Counted from the first letter of the stretch, positions 1 through 13,108 are shown. The stretch: DNA of 29,058 bases from an uncultured Steroidobacteraceae bacterium (GCA_964600535.1 CAZRLI010000001.1:1-29058), one strand, 5' to 3'. The notes: generated by a model not told the origin, from the letters alone. Made by a program: numbers and translations.

Positions 1-2
1 TC

Positions 3-263
3 CTCTTCAAGAAGGGCATCCCGGAAGAAGTGCACATCGAGGACGTCAAGCAGGTCAACGGCCAGTGGTACGTCGCCGGCACTTCGGGCGTGGTGCTGGT
101 CGTCTGCGGTCTCGGCTCGACGATGCGCCAGGCGCAGGCCCAGGCCTATGCCCGCATCCGCAACATCATGATCCCCGACATGTACTATCGCGACGACATC
201 GGCGAGCGCTGGTTCGAGGACCACGATCGCCTGCACACCTGGGGCTACCTGCGCGAAGTGTGA
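3..263 (+). CDS. 5'-truncated phosphoribosylamine-glycine ligase (PurD/GARS)-like ATP-grasp protein, C-terminal domain
   Basis: Frame is open from the window edge (LFKKGIPEEVHIED...). The C-terminus VLVVCGLGSTMRQAQAQAYARIRNIMIPDMYYRDDIG resembles the GARS_C ending (…A…AY……YRxDIG). Stop TGA overlaps the next ATG (TGATG). Confidence 0.65.
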   Translation, partial: LFKKGIPEEVHIEDVKQVNGQWYVAGTSGVVLVVCGLGSTMRQAQAQAYARIRNIMIPDMYYRDDIGERWFEDHDRLHTWGYLREV

Positions 264-865
264 TGAGCGGCCGCTTCGATCGCGCCTACTACGAGCGCTA
301 CTACCGCGACCCTGCGAGCAGCGTCACCTCGCGCGCCGAGATGAATGCCCGTGGCCGGCTGATCGGCGCCTGTGCGCAGCACATCGGCCTGCCGGTGAAG
401 CGCATGCTCGATGCCGGTTGCGGCGTGGGGCTGCTGCGCGCACCGCTCCGGCGTGCGCTGCCGCAGGCGGTGTACACCGGCATCGACGTGAGCCCGTACC
501 TCTGCGGCCGGTACGGCTGGACGCAATCCTCGATCGAGGGTTACCGGCCGACGCGGCCATTCGACCTCGTCGTCTGCTACGACGTGCTGCAATACCTCGA
601 CGACGCGCAGGCGCCGCGCGCGCTCGCGAACCTGGCGCGCCTGTGCCGTGGCCTGCTCTACTTCAGCGCACTCACGGCCGCCGACTGGCGCCAGAACTGC
701 GACCAGTCGCGCACCGACCGCGCCGTGCACCTGCGGCGCGGCGAGTGGTACCGGGCACGCCTGCGGCGCCATTTTCGCGAGATTGGCGCCGGCTTCTGGC
801 TGCGAAGGACTGCACCGCTGCCGCTGTGGGAGCTCGAAACCGCGGGCCCGCCGGCACGCGGGTGA
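263..865 (+). CDS. Class I SAM-dependent methyltransferase (200 aa)
   Basis: ATG at 263 overlaps the upstream stop. Motif I MLDAGCGVG, then GIDVS and FDLVVCYDVLQYL. The ORF-track start at 65 is an upstream extension inside the previous gene. Confidence 0.85.
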   Translation: MSGRFDRAYYERYYRDPASSVTSRAEMNARGRLIGACAQHIGLPVKRMLDAGCGVGLLRAPLRRALPQAVYTGIDVSPYLCGRYGWTQSSIEGYRPTRPFDLVVCYDVLQYLDDAQAPRALANLARLCRGLLYFSALTAADWRQNCDQSRTDRAVHLRRGEWYRARLRRHFREIGAGFWLRRTAPLPLWELETAGPPARG

Positions 866-869
866 TGGC

Positions 870-1310
870 TCACGTCGCCGTGAGGCCGAGTATCGCGCAG
901 TAGCGCTCGTTGCAATCGGCGCAGCGGCCCTGCGAGCTGCACCAGCGCAGGCTCTTGCCGTCGACGCGACCCCAGAAGTGGCCGGCTTCGTCCGCGTCGA
1001 GCTCGCGCAGCAGCGCGAGGAAGCTGCGGTTCGGCCCGCCGCCGACGGCGCGCCAGTGACCGGCCTCGTCAAGGGCATGGATCCGCCAGTCGCCGTGGGC
1101 CGCGTTGAAGCGGAACTGCGCGATGGCGAGCAGCGAGTGCGTACCGGGCACGCCGCAAAAAGGCCGGATCTCGCATACGGTGACCCGATCCGCCTCGATG
1201 CGGTAGCCTAGCTGCACCGGATGGCGCGCACGGGGCGGGCAGATGCGCGCGCAGTACCGTGCCAGCAACCGGTCCACGAGGCGAGCAGTGTGCAGCGGGA
1301 TGTGCGTCAC
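870..1310 (-). CDS. DUF3024-like protein with Cys-rich C-terminal extension (146 aa)
   Basis: GTG start inferred at 1310 (MTHIPLHTARLVDRLL). The pattern RYCARICPP..QLGYRIE..IAQFRF..W..LLRELDAD..FWG matches my recollection of DUF3024. The tail carries four Cys. Confidence 0.65.
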   Translation of the reverse strand: MTHIPLHTARLVDRLLARYCARICPPRARHPVQLGYRIEADRVTVCEIRPFCGVPGTHSLLAIAQFRFNAAHGDWRIHALDEAGHWRAVGGGPNRSFLALLRELDADEAGHFWGRVDGKSLRWCSSQGRCADCNERYCAILGLTAT

Positions 1311-1317
1311 GACCGCG

Positions 1318-1327
1318 AATTTAACGT
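1318..1327. promoter_or_regulatory. Overlapping back-to-back -10-like hexamers (TAAATT on minus, TAACGT on plus) in a 36-bp divergent spacer
   Basis: AT-rich patch gaatttaacgtcatt lies between the divergent starts at 1310 and 1347. Both hexamers fit TAnnnT. Confidence 0.45.
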
Positions 1328-1346
1328 CATTCCGGGCTGGAGGGGG

Positions 1347-1925
1347 ATGCTCCTGGCCGGCGCGGTGCTGCTGGCCGGCTACCAGTGGGCGCAGTCGCGC
1401 CCGATCGAGCGTCGCCCCGGCGTGATCGCAGCCGACGAGCCCGCGCAGACGGTGCTCGACGCGATCGAGTCCCTCGATGCAGGCCACGACTATCGCCTGA
1501 CACCGCGTGCGCGCTTCAGTGCGGTCGTACGCGTGCTCGCACGCGAGCGCTACTACATCGATGCGCTGGCGCCGGTCGCGCCGGTGGACCTCGCGGTCGG
1601 CTGGGGGCCGATGTCGGACAGCAGGGTCCTTGCGGCGATCGAGATCTCGCAGTCAAACCGCTTCTACTACTGGCACGCCGATGAATTGCCCCTGCCACGG
1701 GGCGAAATCGAATCGCATTCGGCGAACTGGCACATCGTGCCGGCCAGCGCGGCCGTCAACCGGGTGCTGCGGGGCGTGCGCGTGGGGGACGTGGTGCGGA
1801 TCGAAGGCGAGCTCGTCGACGTGGACGGGCCCGACGGGGGCGCCGCGCGCACCTCGCTGCGGCGCGATGACACCGGCGCCGGTGCCTGCGAGATCATCCT
1901 CGCGCGGTCGCTTGCGATATCCTAG
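1347..1925 (+). CDS. Conserved hypothetical membrane-anchored/exported protein (192 aa)
   Basis: ATG follows GGAGGGGG. Hydrophobic N-terminus MLLAGAVLLAGYQW. Protein-like motifs WGPMSD, QSNRFYYW, SHSANWHIVPA and host-like codon usage. Confidence 0.75.
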   Translation: MLLAGAVLLAGYQWAQSRPIERRPGVIAADEPAQTVLDAIESLDAGHDYRLTPRARFSAVVRVLARERYYIDALAPVAPVDLAVGWGPMSDSRVLAAIEISQSNRFYYWHADELPLPRGEIESHSANWHIVPASAAVNRVLRGVRVGDVVRIEGELVDVDGPDGGAARTSLRRDDTGAGACEIILARSLAIS

Positions 1926-1929
1926 CCGC

Positions 1930-2319
1930 ATGATCGCCAGCCTTTCGGGCGTGCAGGCCCTCAGGCCCGTGACCGGACCCCTCAACCTGGTCCTCCAGGG
2001 TCGCGAAGTCGGCACCTGCTCGAACGCGACCGAGGTCGCATTCGCGGGCGCCGCCGGCGACGTACCCGACGACCTCGAGTACGCTGAAATCCAGCCCGCT
2101 GGCGCAGCGGCAGGCGCGTGGTCGGTGCGCACCGCACGCGGCGAGTTCATCGTGCACGCGCGCAGCATGCACCTGCACCGCGACGTGTCGATCGCGCTGC
2201 GAACCCTGTTGCCGCGCCAGGAACCGCCGCGGCTGCGCCGGCTCGCCTGGAGGTGGTTGCCGGCCATCGCCGGCTCGCCGGTTGGCCGCCGGCTGCTGCT
2301 CGCGGTGCGAGGGCGCTGA
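1930..2319 (+). CDS. Hypothetical protein (129 aa) with basic amphipathic C-terminus
   Basis: ATG 4 nt after the previous stop, in the frame of track ORF 1507..2319. Natural amino-acid composition, unlike the upstream extension. Confidence 0.6.
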   Translation: MIASLSGVQALRPVTGPLNLVLQGREVGTCSNATEVAFAGAAGDVPDDLEYAEIQPAGAAAGAWSVRTARGEFIVHARSMHLHRDVSIALRTLLPRQEPPRLRRLAWRWLPAIAGSPVGRRLLLAVRGR

Positions 2320-2410
2320 CACGCCGGCAACATCTGGTGCGCCAGGCATCCTCAATCGAACCGAGTACTCATCCTTGTTACTCTCCTGACGCCTGGGGAC
2401 CTGGCCGGAT

Positions 2411-2445
2411 CCATTCGCCAGGGAAGTGCCGAGGTCGGCGAATGG
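2411..2445. repeat. Inverted repeat/hairpin (9-bp perfect stem, 17-nt loop) upstream of the aldolase operon
   Basis: CCATTCGCC (2411-2419) and GGCGAATGG (2437-2445) are exact reverse complements. Confidence 0.6.
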
Positions 2446-2554
2446 TCGTGGTGACCGCGGAATTCCCCGGCGCGGGTTGGCAGACGGCGGAGCGAATTCG
2501 GGGTGTCATGACCCGGTTCCCCGGGGCAGCTTGAACGACTGAAGGCAATGCGCC

Positions 2555-3508
2555 ATGAAATACAGCAAGCGCGACGCGAAGGATCATGCGCGCCGATACC
2601 TGAAAGGGATCTGGGCCGCGGCCCTGACGCCGTTTGGCGCTGATCTTCGGCTGAGTGAAGAGGGCTTTCGCCGGAATCTTCGGCACTGGATCGACGATCT
2701 CGAGATCGATGGCTTCTTCGTCGCCGGCAAGCAGGGCGAATTCTTTTCCCTGAGCGTCGCGGAACGGAAGCGCACGTTCGAGCTGGCCGTGGAGGAAACC
2801 AGGGGCCGCGCGCGCACCATCATGTCCTGTTCCGACCAGAACCTCGATGTCGTGCTCGATCTCGCCAGGCACGCCAAGGCCGTCGGCGCCGATTTCATCG
2901 TGGTCCACGCCCCGGTGCTGCATTTCGTCACGCTGCCGGATGACACCCTCTACGAGTACTACAAGTACATCAGCGAACAGATCGATATCGGCATTGCCAT
3001 GTGGAGCCACCCGGACAGCGGGTACCTGATGTCGCCTGAGCTGTGTGCGCGAATCGCCGAGCTGCCCAATATCGTGGCGATCAAGTACAGCGTGCCCCGC
3101 GACATGTACAAGCAGCTGACGGAAATTGCCGGAGACAGGCTCATCGTAAGCAGCTCCTCGGAAGAGGAGTGGCTCGACAATATCCTGGAGCTCGGCTGGA
3201 GCGTCTACCTGTGCTCGAGCCCGCCGTACCTGTTGCAGAGCGCCAAAGACAAGAGAATGCGGCAGTACACCGATCTGGCCATGAGTGGCAGGGGCGAGGA
3301 GGCCAGGAGGGTAAGAGATAGCCTGGCGCCGGTTCGCCAGGCGCTGCGGGATTCGCGCCCGGGTGGCAAGGCCCACGCGCAGCAGAAATACTGGCAGGAA
3401 CTGCTGGGACAGGCCGGCGGCCCGGTGAGGCGACCCCTGCTGCAGCTCACGGACGAAGAGCGCGAGCGCATTCGCCACGCATTCAACAACTGCGGCCTCA
3501 GGGTGTAA
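2555..3508 (+). CDS. Dihydrodipicolinate synthase/N-acetylneuraminate lyase (class I aldolase) family protein, not canonical DapA
   Basis: TPF near the N-terminus, GKQGEF (GxxGE motif), Schiff-base Lys in IVAIKYS. SD-like GAAGG upstream. Confidence 0.88.
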   Translation: MKYSKRDAKDHARRYLKGIWAAALTPFGADLRLSEEGFRRNLRHWIDDLEIDGFFVAGKQGEFFSLSVAERKRTFELAVEETRGRARTIMSCSDQNLDVVLDLARHAKAVGADFIVVHAPVLHFVTLPDDTLYEYYKYISEQIDIGIAMWSHPDSGYLMSPELCARIAELPNIVAIKYSVPRDMYKQLTEIAGDRLIVSSSSEEEWLDNILELGWSVYLCSSPPYLLQSAKDKRMRQYTDLAMSGRGEEARRVRDSLAPVRQALRDSRPGGKAHAQQKYWQELLGQAGGPVRRPLLQLTDEERERIRHAFNNCGLRV

Positions 3509-3554
3509 CTTTCTCGACGCGGGTCGCCTCCAGTGGACCCCGAGGAATTGAGCC

Positions 3555-4118
3555 ATGAACCTGAAGTACGGACTGCCCAGGAACCTGCTGGGCTGGGTTG
3601 ACGCCAACCGCGCCCGCCTCAAGCCGCCGGTCAACAACGCCGCGCTCTACCCGGACGGCAACTACATCATCAACATGGTGGGCGGCGGTAACACGCGCAC
3701 CGACTTTCACCACAATCCGACCGAGGAGATCTTTCACCAGATCAAGGGTACGGCCTACATCGAGATCTGGGATCGCGGCAAGTTCGACCGCGTCGACCTC
3801 AGGGAAGGTGATGTCTGGCTGATGGAGGCAAACCTGCATCACTCGCCGCAGCGCCCCGACCCGAACGGGCTGTGCTTCCTGGTCGAGCTCAGGCGCCCCA
3901 AGGGCGTGCTGGATTCATTCAACTGGTATTGCCCGCGCTGTGCGACCCTGGTGTGGGGCAGCAGCGTGGAGCTGCAGGACCTCGTGGCGGACCTGCCGCG
4001 TACCTTCGAGGTCTTTTATGCCCTGAATGACACCGAGCGCACCTGCCGGCACTGCGGCACCGTTCACCCGGGGCGCGACTACGCTGCCTGGCATGCCATC
4101 CGCACAGCCAACCCCTGA
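3555..4118 (+). CDS. nbaC: 3-hydroxyanthranilate 3,4-dioxygenase
   Basis: LKPPVNN, GGGNTRTDFHHNPTEE (Arg plus Fe ligands His/Glu), HSPQR, and the rubredoxin-like site WYCPRC...TCRHCG. SD GAGGA. Confidence 0.92.
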   Translation: MNLKYGLPRNLLGWVDANRARLKPPVNNAALYPDGNYIINMVGGGNTRTDFHHNPTEEIFHQIKGTAYIEIWDRGKFDRVDLREGDVWLMEANLHHSPQRPDPNGLCFLVELRRPKGVLDSFNWYCPRCATLVWGSSVELQDLVADLPRTFEVFYALNDTERTCRHCGTVHPGRDYAAWHAIRTANP

Positions 4119-4136
4119 GAACGGGCCCTGGGGCCG

Positions 4137-4970
4137 GTGAGCGACACCCAACGACAGTCCGGCAGCACCGTGCACAAGGATGTGGTGCTGGTCGGGTGCG
4201 GCGCGATGGCCCGCTTCGTCTTGCGCGGCGTCGCGGGCGATGCCGCTATCCGCATCTCGAAGGTACTGGTCAGGCCGGAGAGCCTGGCTGTCGCCAGGGG
4301 CCTTCTGCCGTCCGGTACGGCTGCCATCACTTCCCTGGACGAGCTGCAGGTTGCCCCGGACCTCCTTCTCGAGCTCGCCAGCCACGCTGCAGTGGCTGCA
4401 ATCATTCCCCAGGCGCTCGAGCGAGGATTTCGAGTGGTCATCGCATCCACCGGTGCACTGGCGGATGATCGACTACGGGAGCAGGTGATCCGCAGCGCGT
4501 GCCGCGGCGGTACGCAACTGGGGCTCTTGCCGGGCGCCATCGGCGCCCTGGACGTGCTCTCGGCGCACCGGGAAGCGGGGCTTGAAAGCGTTCTCTACAC
4601 GGGCACCAAGCAGCCGACGGCGTGGCGAAACACGCCTGCGGCCGACCGGCTGGACCTCGGGCGGATCGAGTCGCCGGTGACGATTTTCGAAGGCACAGCC
4701 CGGGATGCGGCCTTGCTTTACCCCCGGAATGCGAACGTGGCCGCAACCCTGGCCCTTGCAGGCATGGGTTTCGATCTAACGCGGGTACGGCTGGTTGCCG
4801 ATCCGGGCGCAAGCGCGAGCATCCACAGAATAGAGGCGACTTCCGCGGCGGGAAGGTTCTCCGTTGAGCTGGCCAGCGAACCCCTTCCGGACAACCCCAG
4901 GACTTCCGCCGTGACCGCTTACAGCGCCCTGCGCTTGCTGCGAAATCTCGTGGAACCGCTCTGCCTCTGA
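4137..4970 (+). CDS. nadX: L-aspartate dehydrogenase (NadX) family protein (alternative GTG start at 4170)
   Basis: Rossmann motif VGCGAMA, GAIGALD, YTGTKQP, FEGTARDAA..YPRNANVAAT, IHRIEA, PDNPRTSA. Confidence 0.88.
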   Translation: MSDTQRQSGSTVHKDVVLVGCGAMARFVLRGVAGDAAIRISKVLVRPESLAVARGLLPSGTAAITSLDELQVAPDLLLELASHAAVAAIIPQALERGFRVVIASTGALADDRLREQVIRSACRGGTQLGLLPGAIGALDVLSAHREAGLESVLYTGTKQPTAWRNTPAADRLDLGRIESPVTIFEGTARDAALLYPRNANVAATLALAGMGFDLTRVRLVADPGASASIHRIEATSAAGRFSVELASEPLPDNPRTSAVTAYSALRLLRNLVEPLCL

Positions 4971-4984
4971 GCCCTGCCTTGCGC

Positions 4985-5941
4985 CTACGCCGGGTGGCGT
5001 GCCGCGATGTTCCTGCCGACGGTCCTCAGGCAGCCCAGGAAAGCGGCCGCGGCCGGGGGTAATGTGCCCGTCGCGCGCATGATCACTCCCACCGGACGTA
5101 CCGTCCCCTTGAGCCTCACGGGCAGGATGGATATGAGACCGTGGTCCACGTCATCCAGCGCAACCTGCATCGGCAGTACGCCGATGTAGTCCGTCTGCCT
5201 GATGAGTGACCGGTTCGCGGTGGTCGACATGGATTCGATGACGTTGAGCGGCAATGGCAGTCCCGCCGCATCGAACGCCCTCTCGACTTGCCGCCGCAAT
5301 GCCGTCTCCGACACCGGCATCAGCCAGGGTTCGTCATAGAGGTCCCGCAGTGCGAGGCGCTTCCTCTTCGTGAGCGGATGCCCGGAGCGGACGACCAGGC
5401 AAGCGGGTTCCGAATAGAAGCGTTCGTAACGCAGGTAGCGCGTTCTTCCGACTTCCGGAAGCCGCCCCAACACGAAGTCGATATCTCCTGCGGTCAGTGC
5501 AGGCAGCAGCACATCATAGGTTCCCTCGAGGACGGTGATCGCGATCCTGGGGCGGTCCTTCTTCAGCATCGCCATCGCCTCCGGCAGCAGCCGTGCCGAG
5601 CCCGACAACAGAGTGCCCACGTAGACGTGACCACTGTATCCGCTACTCAGGTTGTCCAGTTCTTCGGCGCAATGGCGCAGCTGCGCCAGGATGATCTTCG
5701 CGTGCCGACTGAATATTTCGCCGTAAGGTGTCGCGTTCAATCCGCGATTGGTCCGCTCGAAGAGGGGCAGGCCGAGCGTCCCCTCGATATCCTTCAACGA
5801 CTTCGTGACGGCGGGCTGGGTCAGGTTCAGGTGGCGCGCCGCCTTCAGGATGCTGCGCTGGTCGTAGACCTTCGCCACCAGTTCCAGATGGCGGAGGCGA
5901 AGCTTCCGGGCAATCCAGCGCTCGAGTCGTTGATTTGACAT
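4985..5941 (-). CDS. LysR-type transcriptional regulator (GbpR/GalR/PcaQ-like), 318 aa
   Basis: HTH LRLRHLELV..SILKAARHLNLTQPAVTKSLKDIE..LFERTNRG..TPYG, followed by a substrate-binding domain. Start inferred at MSNQRLER. Confidence 0.93.
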   Translation of the reverse strand: MSNQRLERWIARKLRLRHLELVAKVYDQRSILKAARHLNLTQPAVTKSLKDIEGTLGLPLFERTNRGLNATPYGEIFSRHAKIILAQLRHCAEELDNLSSGYSGHVYVGTLLSGSARLLPEAMAMLKKDRPRIAITVLEGTYDVLLPALTAGDIDFVLGRLPEVGRTRYLRYERFYSEPACLVVRSGHPLTKRKRLALRDLYDEPWLMPVSETALRRQVERAFDAAGLPLPLNVIESMSTTANRSLIRQTDYIGVLPMQVALDDVDHGLISILPVRLKGTVRPVGVIMRATGTLPPAAAAFLGCLRTVGRNIAARHPA

Positions 5942-6142
5942 CCTGGGTACTTGCGATCGCCCATCTTCTTCGACGGAGCCCCGCAACCTGGCGAGGTATC
6001 GTCCGCTGCCGGCGGCGGAGCGGGAAACGCCCGCGCAGGGCCCGTGAAGCCACATTGTTGTGGCGGCGGGATCGCCCGTCAAACATCCTGGCTGGCCCGA
6101 AGCGCGGCAGTCCCGTGCAGGACAGCGCACGTCCGCAGCCCG

Positions 6143-6169
6143 GCTGGTATCACTGTCTCCCATACCAGC
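6143..6169. promoter_or_regulatory. Candidate LysR operator: 8-bp inverted repeat GCTGGTAT-N11-ATACCAGC
   Basis: Perfect IR containing a T-N11-A core (T6150/A6162), in the divergent lysR/ALDH spacer and next to an AT-rich patch (gggtttaattcatt). Confidence 0.5.
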
Positions 6170-6246
6170 GCGGGTTTAATTCATTGGATCCTGTCGTCGC
6201 CGCGTGCAAGTCTGGCGGCCTGAAGTCCGGAGCCGCGAGGCGAGCG

Positions 6247-7683
6247 ATGAATGCCTATCCGGAGTTGCGCCTGTACATCGACGGGCAATGGCGCACGGCC
6301 CGCAATGAACTGCCGGTCCTGAACCCGGCAACGGAAGAGGAGATCGGGCGTGTCCCTCATGCCGATGAGGGCGACCTCGACGATGCACTGGAGGCCGCCG
6401 CAAGGGGGCTCAGGACATGGCGCCAGGCTCCTCCATCCGAGCGCGCCGGGGTCCTGCGGAAGGCCGCTGCGCTCATGCGCAAGCGACAGGAGGAAATCGC
6501 GTCGGCGATTACCGCAGAGCACGGCAAGCCGCTGGGCGAAGCCAGGCTCGAGGTCATCCGTGGCTGTGAATTCCTGGAATGGGATGCGGGCGAAGCGACC
6601 CGCACCTATGGGCGCGTGATACCCAGCGCACCGGGCATCAAGTACATCGTGCACCACGAGCCCATCGGGACAGTGGCCGCCTTTTCGCCCTGGAACTTCC
6701 CGATGAGCCAACCTTGCCGGAAGATCTCGGCTGCGATCGCCGCCGGTTGCTCCATCATCCAGAAGCCTGCCGAAGAGACGCCTGCCGGTGCCCTGCACAT
6801 TGCGAGGGCGCTCCACGATGCGGGCCTCCCCCCGGGCGTGTTGAACATGGTGTTCGGCTCGCCCGGGCAGATCTCGGAGTATCTGATCAGACAGGACCAG
6901 GTGCGGCTGGTTGCATTCACCGGCTCCACGGCAGTCGGCAAGCATCTCAGTACCCTGGCCGCGCAACACATGACCCCCGTGTTGATGGAGCTGGGTGGCC
7001 ACGCACCGGTGGTCGTGTGCGAAGACACCGATGTCCAGCCCGCAGCCATCAGCAGCGCGGAAAGAAAGATGCGCAATGCGGGCCAGGTCTGTACTTCGCC
7101 GACCCGCTTCTTCGTGCACGAATCCATATTCGAGGAGTACACGGACGCATTCGTGCGCCGTGCCGCGGGCTTGACCGTCGGCAACGGAGCGGGCGCCGGC
7201 GTGGAGATGGGCCCGCTCGCCAATCACCGCAGGATCGAAGCGCTCACCGAACTCGTGGAGAACGCGCGACAGTGCGGTGCCGAGGTCAGGACGGGCGGTC
7301 GCAGGATAGGCAACAAGGGCTACTTCTTTGAGCCAACGGTCCTGGCCAATGTGCCCGACGCTGCCCGGGTGATGCAGGTCGAGCCCTTCGGGCCGCTGGC
7401 GGTCATCAATCCCGTGGCGTCCCTGGACGAAGCCATCGAGAAGGCGAACTCCGTACCTTATGGCCTGGCCGCCTATGCTTTCACGAACCGGGTCGACTAC
7501 GTCGACCGGATCGTCGACGGCCTGGAAGCCGGCAACGTGTCGATCAACACATTGGAGGCCTCGCTACCGGAAACACCCTTTGGTGGCGTCAAGTCCAGCG
7601 GTTATGGGCGTGAAGGCGGCATGGAAGGCCTGAGCCACTACATGATCGTCAAGAACGTCTCGCACAGCGTCTCGATTGTCTAG
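6247..7683 (+). CDS. NAD(P)-dependent aldehyde dehydrogenase, SSADH/alpha-ketoglutaric semialdehyde dehydrogenase (AraE-like) family, 478 aa
   Basis: PWNFP, KPAEETP, FTGST, MELGGHAP, catalytic NAGQVCTS, EPFGP, PFGGVKSSG. Start inferred at MNAYPELRLYIDG. Confidence 0.93.
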   Translation: MNAYPELRLYIDGQWRTARNELPVLNPATEEEIGRVPHADEGDLDDALEAAARGLRTWRQAPPSERAGVLRKAAALMRKRQEEIASAITAEHGKPLGEARLEVIRGCEFLEWDAGEATRTYGRVIPSAPGIKYIVHHEPIGTVAAFSPWNFPMSQPCRKISAAIAAGCSIIQKPAEETPAGALHIARALHDAGLPPGVLNMVFGSPGQISEYLIRQDQVRLVAFTGSTAVGKHLSTLAAQHMTPVLMELGGHAPVVVCEDTDVQPAAISSAERKMRNAGQVCTSPTRFFVHESIFEEYTDAFVRRAAGLTVGNGAGAGVEMGPLANHRRIEALTELVENARQCGAEVRTGGRRIGNKGYFFEPTVLANVPDAARVMQVEPFGPLAVINPVASLDEAIEKANSVPYGLAAYAFTNRVDYVDRIVDGLEAGNVSINTLEASLPETPFGGVKSSGYGREGGMEGLSHYMIVKNVSHSVSIV

Positions 7684-9197
7684 CCGGTCGGCATCGAGTA
7701 ATCGGCTCCCGCGCGGATGCCGGTGGGCCAGCGCGAGGTGACGGTCTTCAGCCGGCTGTAGAAGCGCACCCCTTCCATGCCATACATGGAGGTATCGCCG
7801 AACAGGGAGCGCTTCCAGCCACCGAAACTGTGGAATGCGAGCGGCACTGGAATCGGTACGTTGATTCCGACCATGCCAACCTGGATCCTGGACGCGAACG
7901 TCCGGGCCGAGTCGCCGTCGCGCGTGAAGATGGCCGTGCCGTTGCCGAACTCGTGCGCATTGACCAGCTTCACCGCGGCATCAAACGTCGGCACGCGCGT
8001 GATCGTCAGCACCGGACCGAAGATCTCTTCACGATACACGCGCATGTTCACGGTGGCATTGTCGAACAGCGTGGGACCGAGGAAGTACCCGGGCGCGCGC
8101 GCCATTTCATGCTGCCGCCCGTCAACCAGCAATGTCGCGCCTTCCTTGACGCCCAGCTCGATGTACGCGCGCACTTTCTCGCGATGCTCGGCAGTGATCA
8201 GGGGTCCCATGTCATTGCTGTTGTCCGATCCCGGCCCGACCTTCAATCCGGCAATCCGTGGCAAGAGCCTTTCGAGCAGCGGTTCCGCGGAATGGCCGAC
8301 CGCCACCACCGCCGATATCGCCATGCACCGCTCACCGGCGGAGCCGTAGCCCGCACCCAGCAGCGCATCGGCGACCTGATCCATGTCGGCATCCGGCATG
8401 ACGACGAGGTGATTCTTGGCGCCGCCCAGCGCCTGCACCCGCTTGCCGTGTTGTGAGGCCGTGCGATAAACGTGCTCGGCCACCGGTGTCGAGCCGACAA
8501 AGCTGACCGCGGCGACGCGCGGGTCGCAGAGCAGCGCATTGACGGCCACATGATCGCCCTGCACCACGTTGAAGACGCCGGGCGGCAGCCCGGCCTCGCG
8601 CAGCAGCTCCGCCAGCTTGATCGAGCAACCCGGATCCTTCTCCGACGCCTTGAGGATGAATGTATTGCCGCAGGCAAGCGCCACCGGAAACATCCAGAGA
8701 GGCACCATTGCGGGGAAATTGAAGGGTGTGATGCCCACACAGACCCCCACCGGCTGCCGCATCGAATAGCAATCGACGCCGGTGCCGACCTGGTCCGAAT
8801 ATTCACCCTTGAGCAGATGTGGAATGCCGCAGGCGAAGTCAACGACCTCGAGCCCGCGCTGCAGCTCGCCCTTCGCATCGTGCAGGACCTTGCCGTGCTC
8901 CTCGGTGATGAGCGCTGCGATCTCGTCACGATCGCGCTCGATGAGGTTGCGCAGCCGGAACATGACCTGCGCACGCCGCGTCACCGGCGTCTGCGACCAC
9001 GCCACGAATGCCGCCTCCGCTGCGGCCACTGCCGCGGCGACATCCGCTTCGTCGGACATGGCGACCTCGGCACACTGCGCGCCCGAGGAGGAGTCGAATA
9101 CCGTGCCGGTTCGCCCGGATGACGACGGCTGTCGCTCGTCGTTGATCCAGTTCGCAACCAGCCGTGTGGGCTTCAATGCCTGTGCTTTCCCGGCCAT
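7680..9197 (-). CDS. mmsA: CoA-acylating (methyl)malonate-semialdehyde dehydrogenase, 505 aa
   Basis: TPFNFPAMVPLWMFP, KASEKDP, GGAKNH, AGERCMA, EIFGP, GINVPIPVP, FGGWKRSLFGD. SD GGAAGGAAG before ATG 9197. Confidence 0.95.
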   Translation of the reverse strand: MAGKAQALKPTRLVANWINDERQPSSSGRTGTVFDSSSGAQCAEVAMSDEADVAAAVAAAEAAFVAWSQTPVTRRAQVMFRLRNLIERDRDEIAALITEEHGKVLHDAKGELQRGLEVVDFACGIPHLLKGEYSDQVGTGVDCYSMRQPVGVCVGITPFNFPAMVPLWMFPVALACGNTFILKASEKDPGCSIKLAELLREAGLPPGVFNVVQGDHVAVNALLCDPRVAAVSFVGSTPVAEHVYRTASQHGKRVQALGGAKNHLVVMPDADMDQVADALLGAGYGSAGERCMAISAVVAVGHSAEPLLERLLPRIAGLKVGPGSDNSNDMGPLITAEHREKVRAYIELGVKEGATLLVDGRQHEMARAPGYFLGPTLFDNATVNMRVYREEIFGPVLTITRVPTFDAAVKLVNAHEFGNGTAIFTRDGDSARTFASRIQVGMVGINVPIPVPLAFHSFGGWKRSLFGDTSMYGMEGVRFYSRLKTVTSRWPTGIRAGADYSMPTG

Positions 9198-9606
9198 GCT
9201 TCCTTCCGATTGCAGGCTCGGGTCGCCCCCTGGGGTGGAACCATCCGCGCAACGGGCTGATTGCCTGCACGATGCGATAGTCACCGTGCCCCCGGGACCG
9301 ACTCGAATGCCTCCTGGGTGAAATCGAATCCCGGCCCTTGTAGCACTACGGGACTCGATGGTCGAGGCGGACTGCAGGTGTCGATACCCGGATCGGCCGG
9401 CCCCCGGCCCGACCGGGAGGCATGCTGACTTCCTGCCAGGATGCCGGATGAACGCGAGAGAGCCGATCGACCCGCTGCAGTGGTACGATCACGAGCGCGC
9501 CCGCGTGCAGTCAACAATGATGGCCCGTGCAACCTGGCGGCCGTTGGTCAGCAGCTGGCCGGCGCCACTGGGCGGGTATCGCGCGGCTGACGGAACGAAC
9601 ACAGGC

Positions 9607-10983
9607 ATGACGACTCCCCGCATCCCGGTCACGGTGCTCACCGGCTTCCTCGGCGCCGGCAAGACGACCCTCCTCAACCGCATCCTTACGGAGCGCCACG
9701 GCAAGCGCATCGCCGTCATCGAGAACGAGTTCGGCGAGGTCGGCGTCGACCAGGCGCTCGTCATCGGCGCCGAGGAAGAGCTCTTCGAGACCAGCAACGG
9801 CTGCATCTGCTGCACGGTGCGCGGCGACCTGCTGCGCATCCTCGGCCAGCTCATGCGCCGCCGCGACAAGTTCGACTATGTGCTGATCGAGACGACTGGG
9901 CTCGCCGACCCCGGTCCCGTCGCTCAGACCTTCTTCCTCGACGACGAGCTGCGCGAGCAGTTCGTGCTCGATGCGATCGTCACGCTGGTCGATGCGCGCC
10001 ACTTCGAGGGCCAGCTCGCGAGCGCGCGCGAGGCAGCCGAGCAGGTTGCGTTCGCCGACGTGATCGTGCTCAACAAGACGGATCTCGTTGACGAGGCGAC
10101 GCTCGCGCGCATCGAGTCGCAGGTGCGCGGCATGAATGCCACGGCGCAGGTGCATCGCGCACGCAATGCCGACGTGCCGATCGGGCGCCTGCTCGGTCTC
10201 GGTGCGTTCGACCTGTCGCGCGCGCTCGCCGTCGACGAGTCGTTCCTCGAGCCGCAGTACCCGTTCGAATGGGCCGGCGTGTACGAGCTGGCGGCGGGCA
10301 GGCACGCGCTGCGGGCGGGAGCCGCGCACGATCACGGTCATGATCATGATCACGCGCACGCGCATGAACCCGAACATGACCACGGCCACGCAGGCGTCGC
10401 CGCGGCGCTGCTGGCCGTGGCCGCGGCGACCCGCGAGGCGCTCGACGCAGCGGTCGAGGATGCGGTGCGCGCGTTCGCCGAGCCCGCTGTCCCGGTCCCC
10501 TGCGGTGGTGCGCTGCGGCCTGCACCACACCGCTACCGGCTCGATCTTGCCCACGACGGTGCGCTGGCTACGCTCGAGATTCCGGCCGCTGGAGCCTACG
10601 CGCTCTTCCTGGAGCACAACCCGGCACACGGCCTGGCGCTCAGCCCCGCGCCCCGTGCGCAGCGCGCTTTCGCGTCCCATTCCCACGCCGCCGGCATCGC
10701 CTCGATCGGCATCGACGACCTGCGCGCGCTCGACGCCACGAAGCTCAACGACTGGCTCTCCTACCTGCTGCAGAGCCGCGGCCAGGACATCTTCCGCATG
10801 AAGGGCGTGCTGAGCATCCAGGGCGAGGATCGCCAGTATGTCTTCCACGGCGTGCACATGATGTTCGACGGCCGCGCGGGTCGTGCATGGGGCGCGCAGG
10901 AGCGGCGCAACCGGCTCGTCTTCATCGGCCGCAACCTCGACCGCGCGGAGCTCGAGGCCGGGTTCGAGTCGGCGGTGGCGTGA
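9607..10983 (+). CDS. COG0523/CobW-family G3E P-loop GTPase metallochaperone, 458 aa
   Basis: [22 protein letters not shown] (CxCC), [12 protein letters not shown], His-rich tract, and CobW_C ([20 protein letters not shown]). Confidence 0.95.
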
Positions 10984-12005
10984 CGGCGAAGCAGGCGCCC
11001 GCGCGGCTCGACGCGCTGTGGACCGTCGACATCGGCGACTTCCCGACCGCGCTTGCGTGGTTGCCCGACGGTTCGCAGCTTGCCGTGGGTGCCGCATCCG
11101 GCGAAGTCAGCCTGCTCGCGGCGGCCGGTGGCGCGCGGCGCGTGATCGGGCGGCACGAGAACGGCGTGCTCGCCGTGGCCGTTCGCGGTGACGGCGCCCG
11201 CCTTGCGTCGGCCGGCCAGGATCGCGAGATCGCGCAATGGCGCCTGCCGGATGGCGAGCCGCTGCATCGCTCGGCGCCTCGCAAGGCCTGGGTCGAGCAC
11301 CTCGCCTACCAGCCGGGCGGCCGGCTGCTCGCCTCGTCCGCCGGCCGGGCCGTCGAGCTCTGGTCCGAAACCGGGGAGTGCCTGCATCGCTTGGAGGATC
11401 ACGGCGGCGTGGTCGCCGCGATCGCATGGGACGGCGCAAGGCGCCTCGGCGCAGCCGCGTTCGGCGGCCTTTGGCTGCACTCGATTGGCCCGGGTGACTA
11501 CTCGACCGAGCTGCTGCCCTGGAAGGGCGCACCGCTCACGCTCGCGTGGAGCCCCAACGGCAAGGTGATCGCCTGCGGCATGCAGGATGCGAGCGTGCAT
11601 TTCTGGCGCCGCCCGGGCGGGCACCATTCGCAGATGTCGGGCTATGCGACCAAGGTGCGCGAGGCGAGCTGGAGTGCCAACAGCCGCTGGCTCGCGACCG
11701 GCGGCGGACAATCGGTGGTGTTGTGGGACTTCGGCGGCAAGGGGCCCGAGGGGACGCGCCCGGTGCAGCTCGAGGGACACACCGACCGCATCACCGCACT
11801 CGCCTTCCAGCGCGAGGGCGGGCACCTGGTCTCCGGCGGGCGCGACTGGCGACTGTCGCTGTGGCGCCCGGCGGGCAGCACGCAGGCCCTCGATGCGCAT
11901 CTGCTGGGCGCACCGCTGTGTGCGCTGGCCTGGTCGCCCGACAGCCGCCGCTTGGCCGCGGCGAGCGACAACGGCGAGATCGCCCTTTACGCGCTCGCCA
12001 CCTGA
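10980..12005 (+). CDS. WD40-repeat beta-propeller protein, 341 aa
   Basis: GTG overlaps the upstream TGA. Repeated units ([42 protein letters not shown]). Confidence 0.9.
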
Positions 12006-13108
12006 GGCGCGGTCACGCGGGCCCGCACGCCGAGCGAGGCGTAGGTCGCCAGCTGCGCCTGGAAGGCCTGCGTCCAGCTGAGGCGCAGCGCGCGCGCGCG
12101 CGCCGCGCGGCCGAGCGCGTCCATGTCCCGCCCGTAGACCGCGGCCACCGCATCCGCAAAACTCGCGGCGTCGCCCGGCTCGGCGAGGAGCCCCACCTGT
12201 TCGTCGACGAGCTCGGGGATCGCACCCGCGCGTGTCGCAACGACTGGCCGCCCGCAGGCAAGCGCCTCCACGATCACGAGGCCGAAGGTTTCGCGGGTGC
12301 CGGCGTGCACGAGCGCGTCGCAGGAGGCGATCCAGCGCGCCAGCTCGGCGCTGTCGCGCCGATAGGGAATCGCGGTGACGTTGGGCGCGAACTGCTTCGC
12401 CTCGCCGCCGCCGATCAGCAGCAGGTGGTAAGGCTTGCCGAGGCGCGCGAAGGCATCGAACAGGACCGGCAGGTTCTTCTCGCCGGAAAACCGCCCGGCA
12501 TAGACCAGCAGCCGCGCATCGTCCCGCAGGCCGAGCTCGCGCCGCAGGTCGAGCGTGCGCTGCCCCGGGTGGAAGGTATCGGTGTCCACGCCGAGCGGCT
12601 GGCATGCGACGCGCGAGATGCCGAGGTCGCGGAGGTAGTCGCGCATGAAACGGCTGGGCGCGAGCACCGCATCGAAGCGCGCATAAAGCCAGCGCACGTA
12701 GCGCGCAAAGCCCCCACCGATCACGCTGCCCATGCGTTGCGTCACGAGTTGCGGCAGGTTCGAGTGGAAGAAGGCGACCAGCGGGATGCCACGGCGCTGC
12801 GCGACCTGCGCCGCGCACCAGGCCGGGTGGAACGCGTCGCCCACCTCGATCAGGTCGGGCTCGAGCGCGGCGAGCATCGCGGACCAGCGCGGCGGCTCGA
12901 GCGGCAGCCGGTAGTTGAACGTGCCCGGCACCCGGATGCCGCGCAGCGTCGAGAGGCCGCCGGGCTCCAGCTGATCACGTTCGCCGGGCACGAGCAGCGT
13001 GTGCCGCCACGGCGTGTGCGCCGCGTACCACGCGTGCTTGGCGGTCAGGTAGCGCCTGACGCCGCCGCTCGTCGGCGAGAAGAAAACGGTTGTGTCGACG
13101 ACATGCAT
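11987..13108 (-). CDS. GT4-family (GT-B) glycosyltransferase, 373 aa
   Basis: MHVVDTT.F.P.SGGVRRYL, LVYAGRFSGEKN, and ETFGLVIVEALACG (Ex7E motif). Confidence 0.92.
   Translation of the reverse strand: MHVVDTTVFFSPTSGGVRRYLTAKHAWYAAHTPWRHTLLVPGERDQLEPGGLSTLRGIRVPGTFNYRLPLEPPRWSAMLAALEPDLIEVGDAFHPAWCAAQVAQRRGIPLVAFFHSNLPQLVTQRMGSVIGGGFARYVRWLYARFDAVLAPSRFMRDYLRDLGISRVACQPLGVDTDTFHPGQRTLDLRRELGLRDDARLLVYAGRFSGEKNLPVLFDAFARLGKPYHLLLIGGGEAKQFAPNVTAIPYRRDSAELARWIASCDALVHAGTRETFGLVIVEALACGRPVVATRAGAIPELVDEQVGLLAEPGDAASFADAVAAVYGRDMDALGRAARARALRLSWTQAFQAQLATYASLGVRARVTAPQVASA

Follow-up and report, generated by a model that had tools for sequence, protein, structure and literature searches.

The fate of 2-amino-3-carboxymuconate semialdehyde (ACMS) decides between NAD synthesis and the catabolism of tryptophan carbon and nitrogen, and ACMS decarboxylase (ACMSD) is, to our knowledge, the sole enzyme established at this branch point. 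In the canonical nbaC-nbaD-nbaE-nbaF pathway of Burkholderia and Cupriavidus, which serves 3-hydroxyanthranilate and 2-nitrobenzoate, ACMS is formed by a 3-hydroxyanthranilate 3,4-dioxygenase (HAO, or NbaC). Here we report the analysis of a 29,058-nucleotide stretch of DNA (CAZRLI010000001.1, assembly GCA_964600535.1; hereafter the window), in which a first-pass annotation had proposed a 3-hydroxyanthranilate route that bypasses ACMSD by splitting a C7 compound into C4 and C3 products. The genes in question encode a Schiff-base enzyme of the DHDPS/NAL superfamily (ALD), HAO, a dehydrogenase of the AspDH/NadX family (NadX), a LysR-family regulator, an aldehyde dehydrogenase (ALDH) and MmsA. ALD, HAO and NadX, together with an aldehyde oxidiser that is either ALDH or a molybdenum enzyme, form a conserved module, and it is quite likely that this module constitutes an ACMSD-independent way to metabolise ACMS. 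A full-text search of the literature returned no account of the bacterial module or of the route, only a preprint on ASPDH (bioRxiv 10.64898/2026.06.05.730449), in keeping with the earlier impression that the route had not been described.

The module shares with the canonical nba pathway its start from HAO to ACMS, a link to TDO, KMO and kynureninase, and an ALDH. It has no ACMSD, RidA-type 2-aminomuconate deaminase, 4-oxalocrotonate decarboxylase, hydratase or DmpFG, and has a DHDPS-superfamily enzyme and an AspDH-family dehydrogenase instead. In protocatechuate 4,5-cleavage and gallate catabolism, a carboxylated extradiol product is oxidised, hydrated and aldol-cleaved by LigC, LigJ and LigK to oxaloacetate and a C3 compound. 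The module would follow the same logic, although the Lig families are unrelated (a class II aldolase and an amidohydrolase-type hydratase) and the Lig substrate carries no amino group. KdgD, L-KDA dehydratase, pyrroline-4-hydroxy-2-carboxylate deaminase and the hydratase-aldolases NahE and PhdJ have in common with ALD a TIM barrel, a Schiff-base Lys and a KGSADH-like ALDH partner, but ALD is at most 26% identical to them and has Trp in place of Tyr and Lys-Gln in place of Ser/Thr-Thr. The metazoan ASPDH branch (bioRxiv 10.64898/2026.06.05.730449) likewise couples an enzyme of the NadX/ASPDH family to HAO-derived dehydro-amino acids. The bacterial proteins, in contrast, keep the His of AspDH and have a DHDPS-like partner, and because ACMSD is absent from the bacterial module, the substrate of NadX would carry a 3-carboxylate, unlike that of the metazoan branch.

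Recurrence of the module and absence of the canonical enzymes

When one genome per species was scanned, at least 580 relatives of ALD came up, of which the best 80 (68-76% identical, each from a different genome of the Alphaproteobacteria, Gammaproteobacteria or Binatia) were analysed with up to 10 kb of flank each. HAO is present in 51 of these 80 loci, mostly directly downstream of ALD, and LysR and NadX genes are found in 39 and 21, respectively. ACMSD is found in none of the 80, and a RidA-type deaminase-like match occurs at a single locus (L028). The search for conserved gene clusters that the first-pass annotation had suggested therefore shows the module recurring across genomes, and none of the findings it had named as fatal to its route, such as homologous clusters that consistently include ACMSD, was encountered. 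The set of co-conserved enzymes it had listed stands for ALD, HAO, NadX and the aldehyde oxidiser and fails for MmsA, which is not part of the conserved module.

Co-occurrence is tighter still at the level of whole genomes. Among 34 genomes with ALD, all 34 have a member of the NadX family and 33 have HAO. In an evenly drawn background sample of 301 Alphaproteobacteria, HAO was found in 19 genomes (6%), NadX in 6 (2%) and ALD in 3, with HAO and NadX occurring together only in the 3 genomes that have ALD (the sample includes one unpublished genome, G067, on which no conclusion rests). Loci from Binatia (L009, L010, L013, L018 and others, at about 9000-11000) hold an ALD orthologue of about 71% identity that HAO does not adjoin; its neighbours are a YHS-domain (seleno)protein, an OpuAC binding protein and a gene of the arylmalonate-decarboxylase family, and these genomes have two to three HAO-family copies and one NadX away from ALD. 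A split module was also seen in a 2.2-Mb genome of 44% GC (G057; L127, L128), in which ALD stands by itself at 0.64 Mb, DctPQM-HAO-ALDH lies at 1.31 Mb and NadX is found at 2.12 Mb.

The window and its parent assembly (G000), a 2.48-Mb alphaproteobacterial metagenome-assembled genome that is 66% complete, yielded neither ACMSD nor a DmpG-type aldolase, in agreement with the first-pass annotation of the window. The only match resembling 2-aminomuconate deaminase is a RidA-family gene on contig C147 (34% identical). Homologues were sought at E <= 1e-10 with a verified ACMSD from a canonical cluster (E = 1e-127 to human ACMSD). Three PF04909 (Amidohydro_2) fragments of the source assembly, on C209, C391 and C119, were considered as ACMSD and rejected, having no NCBIfam match and no match to the verified ACMSD at this threshold. 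At the same threshold no ACMSD homologue was detected in 15 of the 26 proteobacterial carriers of the module, nor in G000, and the remaining carriers have only ACMSD paralogues of at most 41% identity. Only 5 of 35 carriers encode a 4-hydroxy-2-oxovalerate aldolase of the DmpG type, so the classic lower pathway is generally unavailable to them, and no lower-pathway enzyme is found among the annotated frequent neighbour families (at least four loci) of the 80 ALD loci. Other genomes with HAO served as positive controls and are mostly canonical, with the arrangement ALDH / RidA-deaminase / HAO / ACMSD / kynureninase.

Related clusters support a tie between the module and tryptophan/kynurenine catabolism. 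Three genomes of the same order as the source of the window carry the arrangements TDO-KMO-kynureninase-HAO / LysR / NadX / molybdenum enzyme-ALD (G028), ALD-molybdenum enzyme / NadX-LysR-TDO (G025) and, in G030, TDO beside a NadX-ALDH-MmsA operon with ALD running divergently from it. The source genome itself has a native TDO (contig C13; L210) and a kynB (cyclase family)-kynU pair of native GC (contig C183; L209). These are the usual tryptophan-to-anthranilate trio, independent of the island in which the module lies. Importers are found at many of the ALD loci (Liv-type ABC in 23/80, TRAP in 6/80), as is an alpha/beta hydrolase resembling eukaryote-type kynurenine formamidase (13/80). In Bosea-type operons (L063:16477-17613 and cluster 8), an Abhydrolase_3/BD-FAE hydrolase lies between the ABC importer and NadX, and its best PDB matches are 2PBL and the Drosophila kynurenine formamidase 4E11. 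This hydrolase is probably a formamidase of the eukaryotic type, a hint that a formylated precursor may be what the importer takes up.

Catalytic features of the encoded enzymes

ALD belongs to an uncharacterised subfamily whose superfamily membership is clear, with the Schiff-base K177 aligning with NAL Lys165 and KdgD Lys166 and a predicted TIM barrel (predicted local distance difference test, 92; template-modelling score of 0.8-0.9 to DHDPS and NAL structures). Its active site departs from those of its relatives in two places. W150-S-H152, within a W-S-H-P-D motif, replaces the catalytic Tyr (DHDPS Tyr133, NAL Tyr137), and G-K59-Q60-G-E replaces the carboxylate motif G-S/T-T-G-E; both replacements, like K177, are invariant across the 80 orthologues. 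The best PDB matches are DHDPS, NAL and KdgD alike, at 21-26% identity, and the best NCBIfam matches, like some of the best PDB matches, are to the decarboxylating dehydratase KdgD. ALD was tried as a specific relative of NahE and PhdJ and rejected, since the fold search gave only generic DHDPS, NAL and KdgD structures; neither enzyme is represented in the top 60 sequence matches or the top 50 fold matches.

The identity of HAO as NbaC is secure. The protein scores 178.7 bits against TIGR03037 (cut-off 145.95) and 204 bits against NF009763 (under the cut-off of 220), and it matches Cupriavidus HAO (1YFU) at E = 6e-57 with about half of the aligned residues identical. The Fe ligands His51/Glu57/His95, the substrate residues Arg47/Arg99/Glu110 and the rubredoxin-like Cys4 site (Cupriavidus numbering) are all retained, and the same residues are kept in 46 of 46 module HAOs. 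The window HAO is just 36-42% identical to the usual HAO of the module, and its closest relatives (65-78%) are betaproteobacterial proteins encoded in canonical deaminase-HAO-ACMSD clusters. That two HAO lineages serve one module argues that selection maintains genuine 3-hydroxyanthranilate dioxygenase activity.

NadX is a PF01958 protein that scores 253 bits against NF009827 (cut-off 226). Its catalytic His aligns with that of Thermotoga maritima and Archaeoglobus fulgidus AspDH, which bears out its annotation as an AspDH-type enzyme. All 24 NadX homologues linked to the module have a His where prokaryotic AspDH has it, and two residues upstream the window NadX has Ser and the 23 others have Asn. 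Human ASPDH has been reported to be a 2-aminomuconate reductase of the kynurenine pathway without AspDH activity, and the metazoan reductase has its catalytic His two residues upstream of the AspDH position (bioRxiv 10.64898/2026.06.05.730449). The window NadX does not show this shift of the metazoan enzyme (ASPDH/AMR); aspartate/oxaloacetate may be its physiological substrate.

Among solved structures, those nearest to ALDH are 9ZH8, Azospirillum brasilense KGSADH (5X5T) and SSADH (5VBF), each at E of about 1e-150, and ALDH falls under the equivalog cut-offs of TIGR01780 (the best, 427 versus 646 bits) and GucD (356 versus 770 bits). Orthologues of ALDH occur in 15 of the 80 ALD loci (61-69% identical) and also in G030 and G057 (61-77% overall). 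The large subunit of a molybdopterin oxidoreductase (about 780 amino acids), whose best named family is the glyceraldehyde dehydrogenase alpha subunit, lies directly upstream of ALD in 23 of the 80. The two are mutually exclusive, occurring together in 0/80 loci and in neither G030 nor G057, and this pattern suggests that the molybdenum enzyme may be a non-orthologous replacement for the aldehyde-oxidising step. Examples of the lone large subunit (Ald_Xan_dh_C + MoCoBD_1/2) are found at L088:7776-10004, L089:7628-9976 and L005:3204-5540.

The MmsA gene that had been annotated in the block is present, and its product exceeds the family cut-off; its co-conservation with the module did not hold. 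MmsA lies beside ALD in none of the 80 loci, and a lineage-wide link was rejected after the module was found in 0 of 80 metagenome loci that hold relatives of the island MmsA. All 26 proteobacterial carriers have an MmsA somewhere in the genome. Same-genus genomes have one MmsA each, 64-66% identical to the window copy. To these genus orthologues a further MmsA of the source genome, on contig C257, is 81-84% identical, so the island MmsA is a foreign additional copy, brought in as part of a 7.2-kb insertion. The presence of MmsA as a second, foreign copy inside the island, and its presence in the G030 operon, are suggestive but weak evidence of a link to the module.

The proposed route and competing explanations

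We propose that the horizontally acquired module takes HAO-made ACMS to central metabolites without ACMSD through cleavage into C4 and C3 products, a reading that in this full form falls just short of being probable. ALD would use its Schiff base to hydrate and cleave ACMS, or its oxidised form, at C3-C4 of the 2-imino/2-oxo acid, the position at which, as far as is known, the superfamily's lyases cut. The products would be a C4 compound, iminoaspartate or oxaloacetate, and either malondialdehyde or malonate semialdehyde as the C3 aldehyde. NadX, as an AspDH-type enzyme, would reduce the C4 imine to L-aspartate, ALDH (elsewhere the molybdenum enzyme) would oxidise the aldehyde, and in this island a dedicated MmsA would turn malonate semialdehyde into acetyl-CoA and CO2. 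Cleavage before oxidation, which the first-pass annotation had given as an alternative order, is slightly favoured, because ALD-HAO is the tightest gene pair and ALDH resembles enzymes for small semialdehydes. This C4 + C3 chemistry appears to be the most parsimonious scheme. Under this scheme each conserved enzyme has a function, an absent lower pathway need not be invoked, and it becomes clear why MmsA was drawn into the module twice. A broader version is possible and more tentative: an undescribed, widespread kynurenine branch in which a rewired DHDPS-fold ALD, with Lys and Trp-Ser-His where the catalytic Tyr would be, splits the HAO product at C3-C4 and a true AspDH captures iminoaspartate, so that 3-hydroxyanthranilate would yield aspartate and a C3 aldehyde that goes on to acetyl-CoA. 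Such a branch would give mesophilic bacterial AspDH its role and would be an antecedent of the metazoan link between HAO and ASPDH.

Several points weigh against the C4 + C3 scheme. If a Lys Schiff base formed at C2, ammonia would be lost and the product would be oxaloacetate rather than iminoaspartate, in which case NadX would have to aminate oxaloacetate, and by analogy the reduction of 2-aminomuconate by human ASPDH may offer NadX another role. ALD is no nearer to NahE and PhdJ than to other DHDPS/NAL enzymes, which leaves the first-pass comparison with those hydratase-aldolases unsupported, and without the catalytic Tyr and the Ser/Thr-Thr motif its chemistry is not readable from relatives. 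Of about 85 loci, just two, the window and G030, have MmsA next to the module, and 8 Binatia carriers searched at E <= 1e-120 yielded no MmsA orthologue. The module genes of Binatia lie scattered and co-occur at the level of the genome. No genes for 2Fe-2S or FAD subunits are present beside the molybdenum enzyme. Finally, no KMO that might supply 3-hydroxyanthranilate locally was found in the island or in the rest of the 66%-complete assembly, and the same holds for an importer.

The chief rival, which we regard as doubtful, is a scheme like that of the metazoan 2-aminomuconate reductase (AMR). ALDH or the molybdenum enzyme would oxidise ACMS, NadX would reduce the resulting 2-amino-3-carboxymuconate to a 3-carboxylated amino-hexenedioate, and ALD would decarboxylate, deaminate or cleave this product or the corresponding keto compound. 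Human ASPDH, a homologue of NadX, provides the precedent as a 2-aminomuconate reductase (bioRxiv 10.64898/2026.06.05.730449), 2-amino-3-carboxymuconate is formally a 3-substituted iminoaspartate, and the strict co-occurrence of NadX with HAO and ALD marks NadX as a core step and not an accessory. However, the prokaryotic AspDH His position is kept in 24/24 module NadX proteins and the window NadX exceeds the AspDH cut-off, the ALDH resembles KGSADH and SSADH and not the muconate-semialdehyde dehydrogenases, and a saturated amino acid offers no carbonyl to the Lys of ALD, which would leave ALD without an obvious role. The standing of KdgD among the matches of ALD raises another explanation, in which ALD would be a KdgD-like Schiff-base deaminase/decarboxylase of ACMS or its acid that replaces both ACMSD and the deaminase. 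Its product, 2-hydroxymuconate semialdehyde or 4-oxalocrotonate, would be degraded by generic meta-cleavage enzymes encoded elsewhere, with NadX merely re-assimilating ammonia. A DHDPS-family enzyme and a KGSADH-like ALDH are the classic pair of sugar-acid and hydroxyproline pathways, and the C3 carboxylate of ACMS, being beta to the C2 imine, would be prone to Schiff-base decarboxylation. We nevertheless consider this improbable, given that 30 of 35 carriers have no DmpG-type aldolase, that the annotated frequent neighbours include no lower-pathway enzyme, and that the 34/34 co-occurrence of NadX would be left without a reason.

De novo synthesis of NAD has two routes, one entered through HAO and the other through AspDH, so that HAO (via ACMS) and NadX (via iminoaspartate) might both feed quinolinate, with their neighbours accessory or regulating flux. 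For the source genome this reading is rejected as unlikely in view of its native nadA-nadB and nadC, which make the island unnecessary for NAD synthesis; the island is moreover absent from same-genus genomes. It is very unlikely for the module in general, which comes with high-capacity ABC/TRAP importers, LysR regulators and aldehyde oxidisers, has no identified nadA or nadC in the loci examined, and would through oxidation of ACMS prevent the formation of quinolinate. In its favour, G030 and a Bosea genome (G338, the genome of L063) have nadC and no detectable nadA (TIGR00550); in these two, HAO may be the quinolinate route and the module then a branch-point competitor for ACMS. That the genes are unrelated and merely share an island is scarcely credible. 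MmsA and LysR genes are common, and no operator shared by the ALD operon and ALDH was found, but the genes lie together again and again, variously ordered, in Alpha- and Gammaproteobacteria, and genome co-occurrence, Binatia included, is near-perfect against backgrounds of 1-6%.

If hundreds of Alphaproteobacteria, Gammaproteobacteria and Binatia share a second, ACMSD-independent solution to the ACMS branch point, reconstructions of tryptophan/3-hydroxyanthranilate pathways in soil and marine bacteria would need revision. A large subfamily of DHDPS-like proteins and the bacterial 'aspartate dehydrogenases' would receive functions, and the 2026 report of human ASPDH in the kynurenine pathway (bioRxiv 10.64898/2026.06.05.730449) would gain an evolutionary context.

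The genomic island and its surroundings

The six genes comprise a probable operon of ALD, HAO and NadX followed by LysR, ALDH and MmsA (Table 1), and all six were confirmed by Pfam, NCBIfam and public gene calls. Their first description was correct throughout, except that the starts of LysR and ALDH had to be trimmed; the maximal open reading frame of 392 amino acids was rejected as the LysR gene in favour of the shorter gene call. Gaps of 46 nt between ALD and HAO and of 18 nt between HAO and NadX fit a single operon. The LysR gene is convergent with nadX, and MmsA is convergent with ALDH, the tails of the two genes overlapping by 4 nt.

Table 1. Positions of the genes and other features of the island within the window.
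Feature	Position	Strand	Basis or remark
Genomic island, insertion relative to same-genus genomes	2343..9575		7.2 kb, lower GC
ALD, DHDPS/NAL-superfamily Schiff-base enzyme, uncharacterised subfamily	2555..3508	+	PF00701, 110 bits
HAO/NbaC, 3-hydroxyanthranilate 3,4-dioxygenase, betaproteobacterial-type lineage	3555..4118	+	TIGR03037
NadX-like, AspDH/NadX-family NAD(P) dehydrogenase	4137..4970	+	NF009827 and NF009828, over cut-off
LysR-family regulator, PcaQ-like	4985..5941	-	Public gene call; divergent from ALDH
GGTAT-N11-ATACC palindrome, candidate LysR box (putative function)	6146..6166		LysR-ALDH intergenic region
ALDH, NAD(P)-dependent aldehyde dehydrogenase, KGSADH/SSADH-like	6247..7683	+	Nearest solved structures
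MmsA, CoA-acylating (methyl)malonate-semialdehyde dehydrogenase	7680..9197	-	TIGR01722, 675.8 bits versus cut-off 448.5

The block is a horizontally acquired insertion carrying the six genes, which agrees with its earlier description as compositionally distinct. GC is 0.63-0.66 inside the block (about 2300-9500) and 0.69-0.75 in the flanks, and in five same-genus genomes (G001, G002, G003, G005 and G009) the counterparts of window positions 1-2342 and 9576-13000 are only about 0.4 kb apart. ALD has no match in 11 same-genus and 7 same-family genomes. The flanking genes are housekeeping genes (glmS, purD, a MiaB-like gene and a CobW-type GTPase). Direct repeats, a tRNA gene and an integrase were looked for at the island borders, and none was seen.

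The GGTAT-N11-ATACC palindrome occurs once in the window, where 0.01 occurrences would be expected by chance. An operator repeated before ALD, ALDH and MmsA was not found in the window, the single box lying upstream of ALDH. The regulator placed in the block by the first-pass annotation is thus present, but the sole LysR-type box fronts ALDH and not the ALD operon.

Inside the left border, upstream of ALD, an inverted repeat CCATTCGCC-N17-GGCGAATGG spans window positions 2410-2445, and past it a pair of GAATTC sites lies at 2461-2501. On the right, same-genus genomes give no alignment to the stretch ahead of 9576, which covers the intergenic region and, if the longest frame is taken, the N-terminus of CobW; this places the right border at or just before the CobW start. 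Positions 9358-12005 hold this CobW/COG0523 GTPase, which has a long insert, followed by a WD40 propeller gene.

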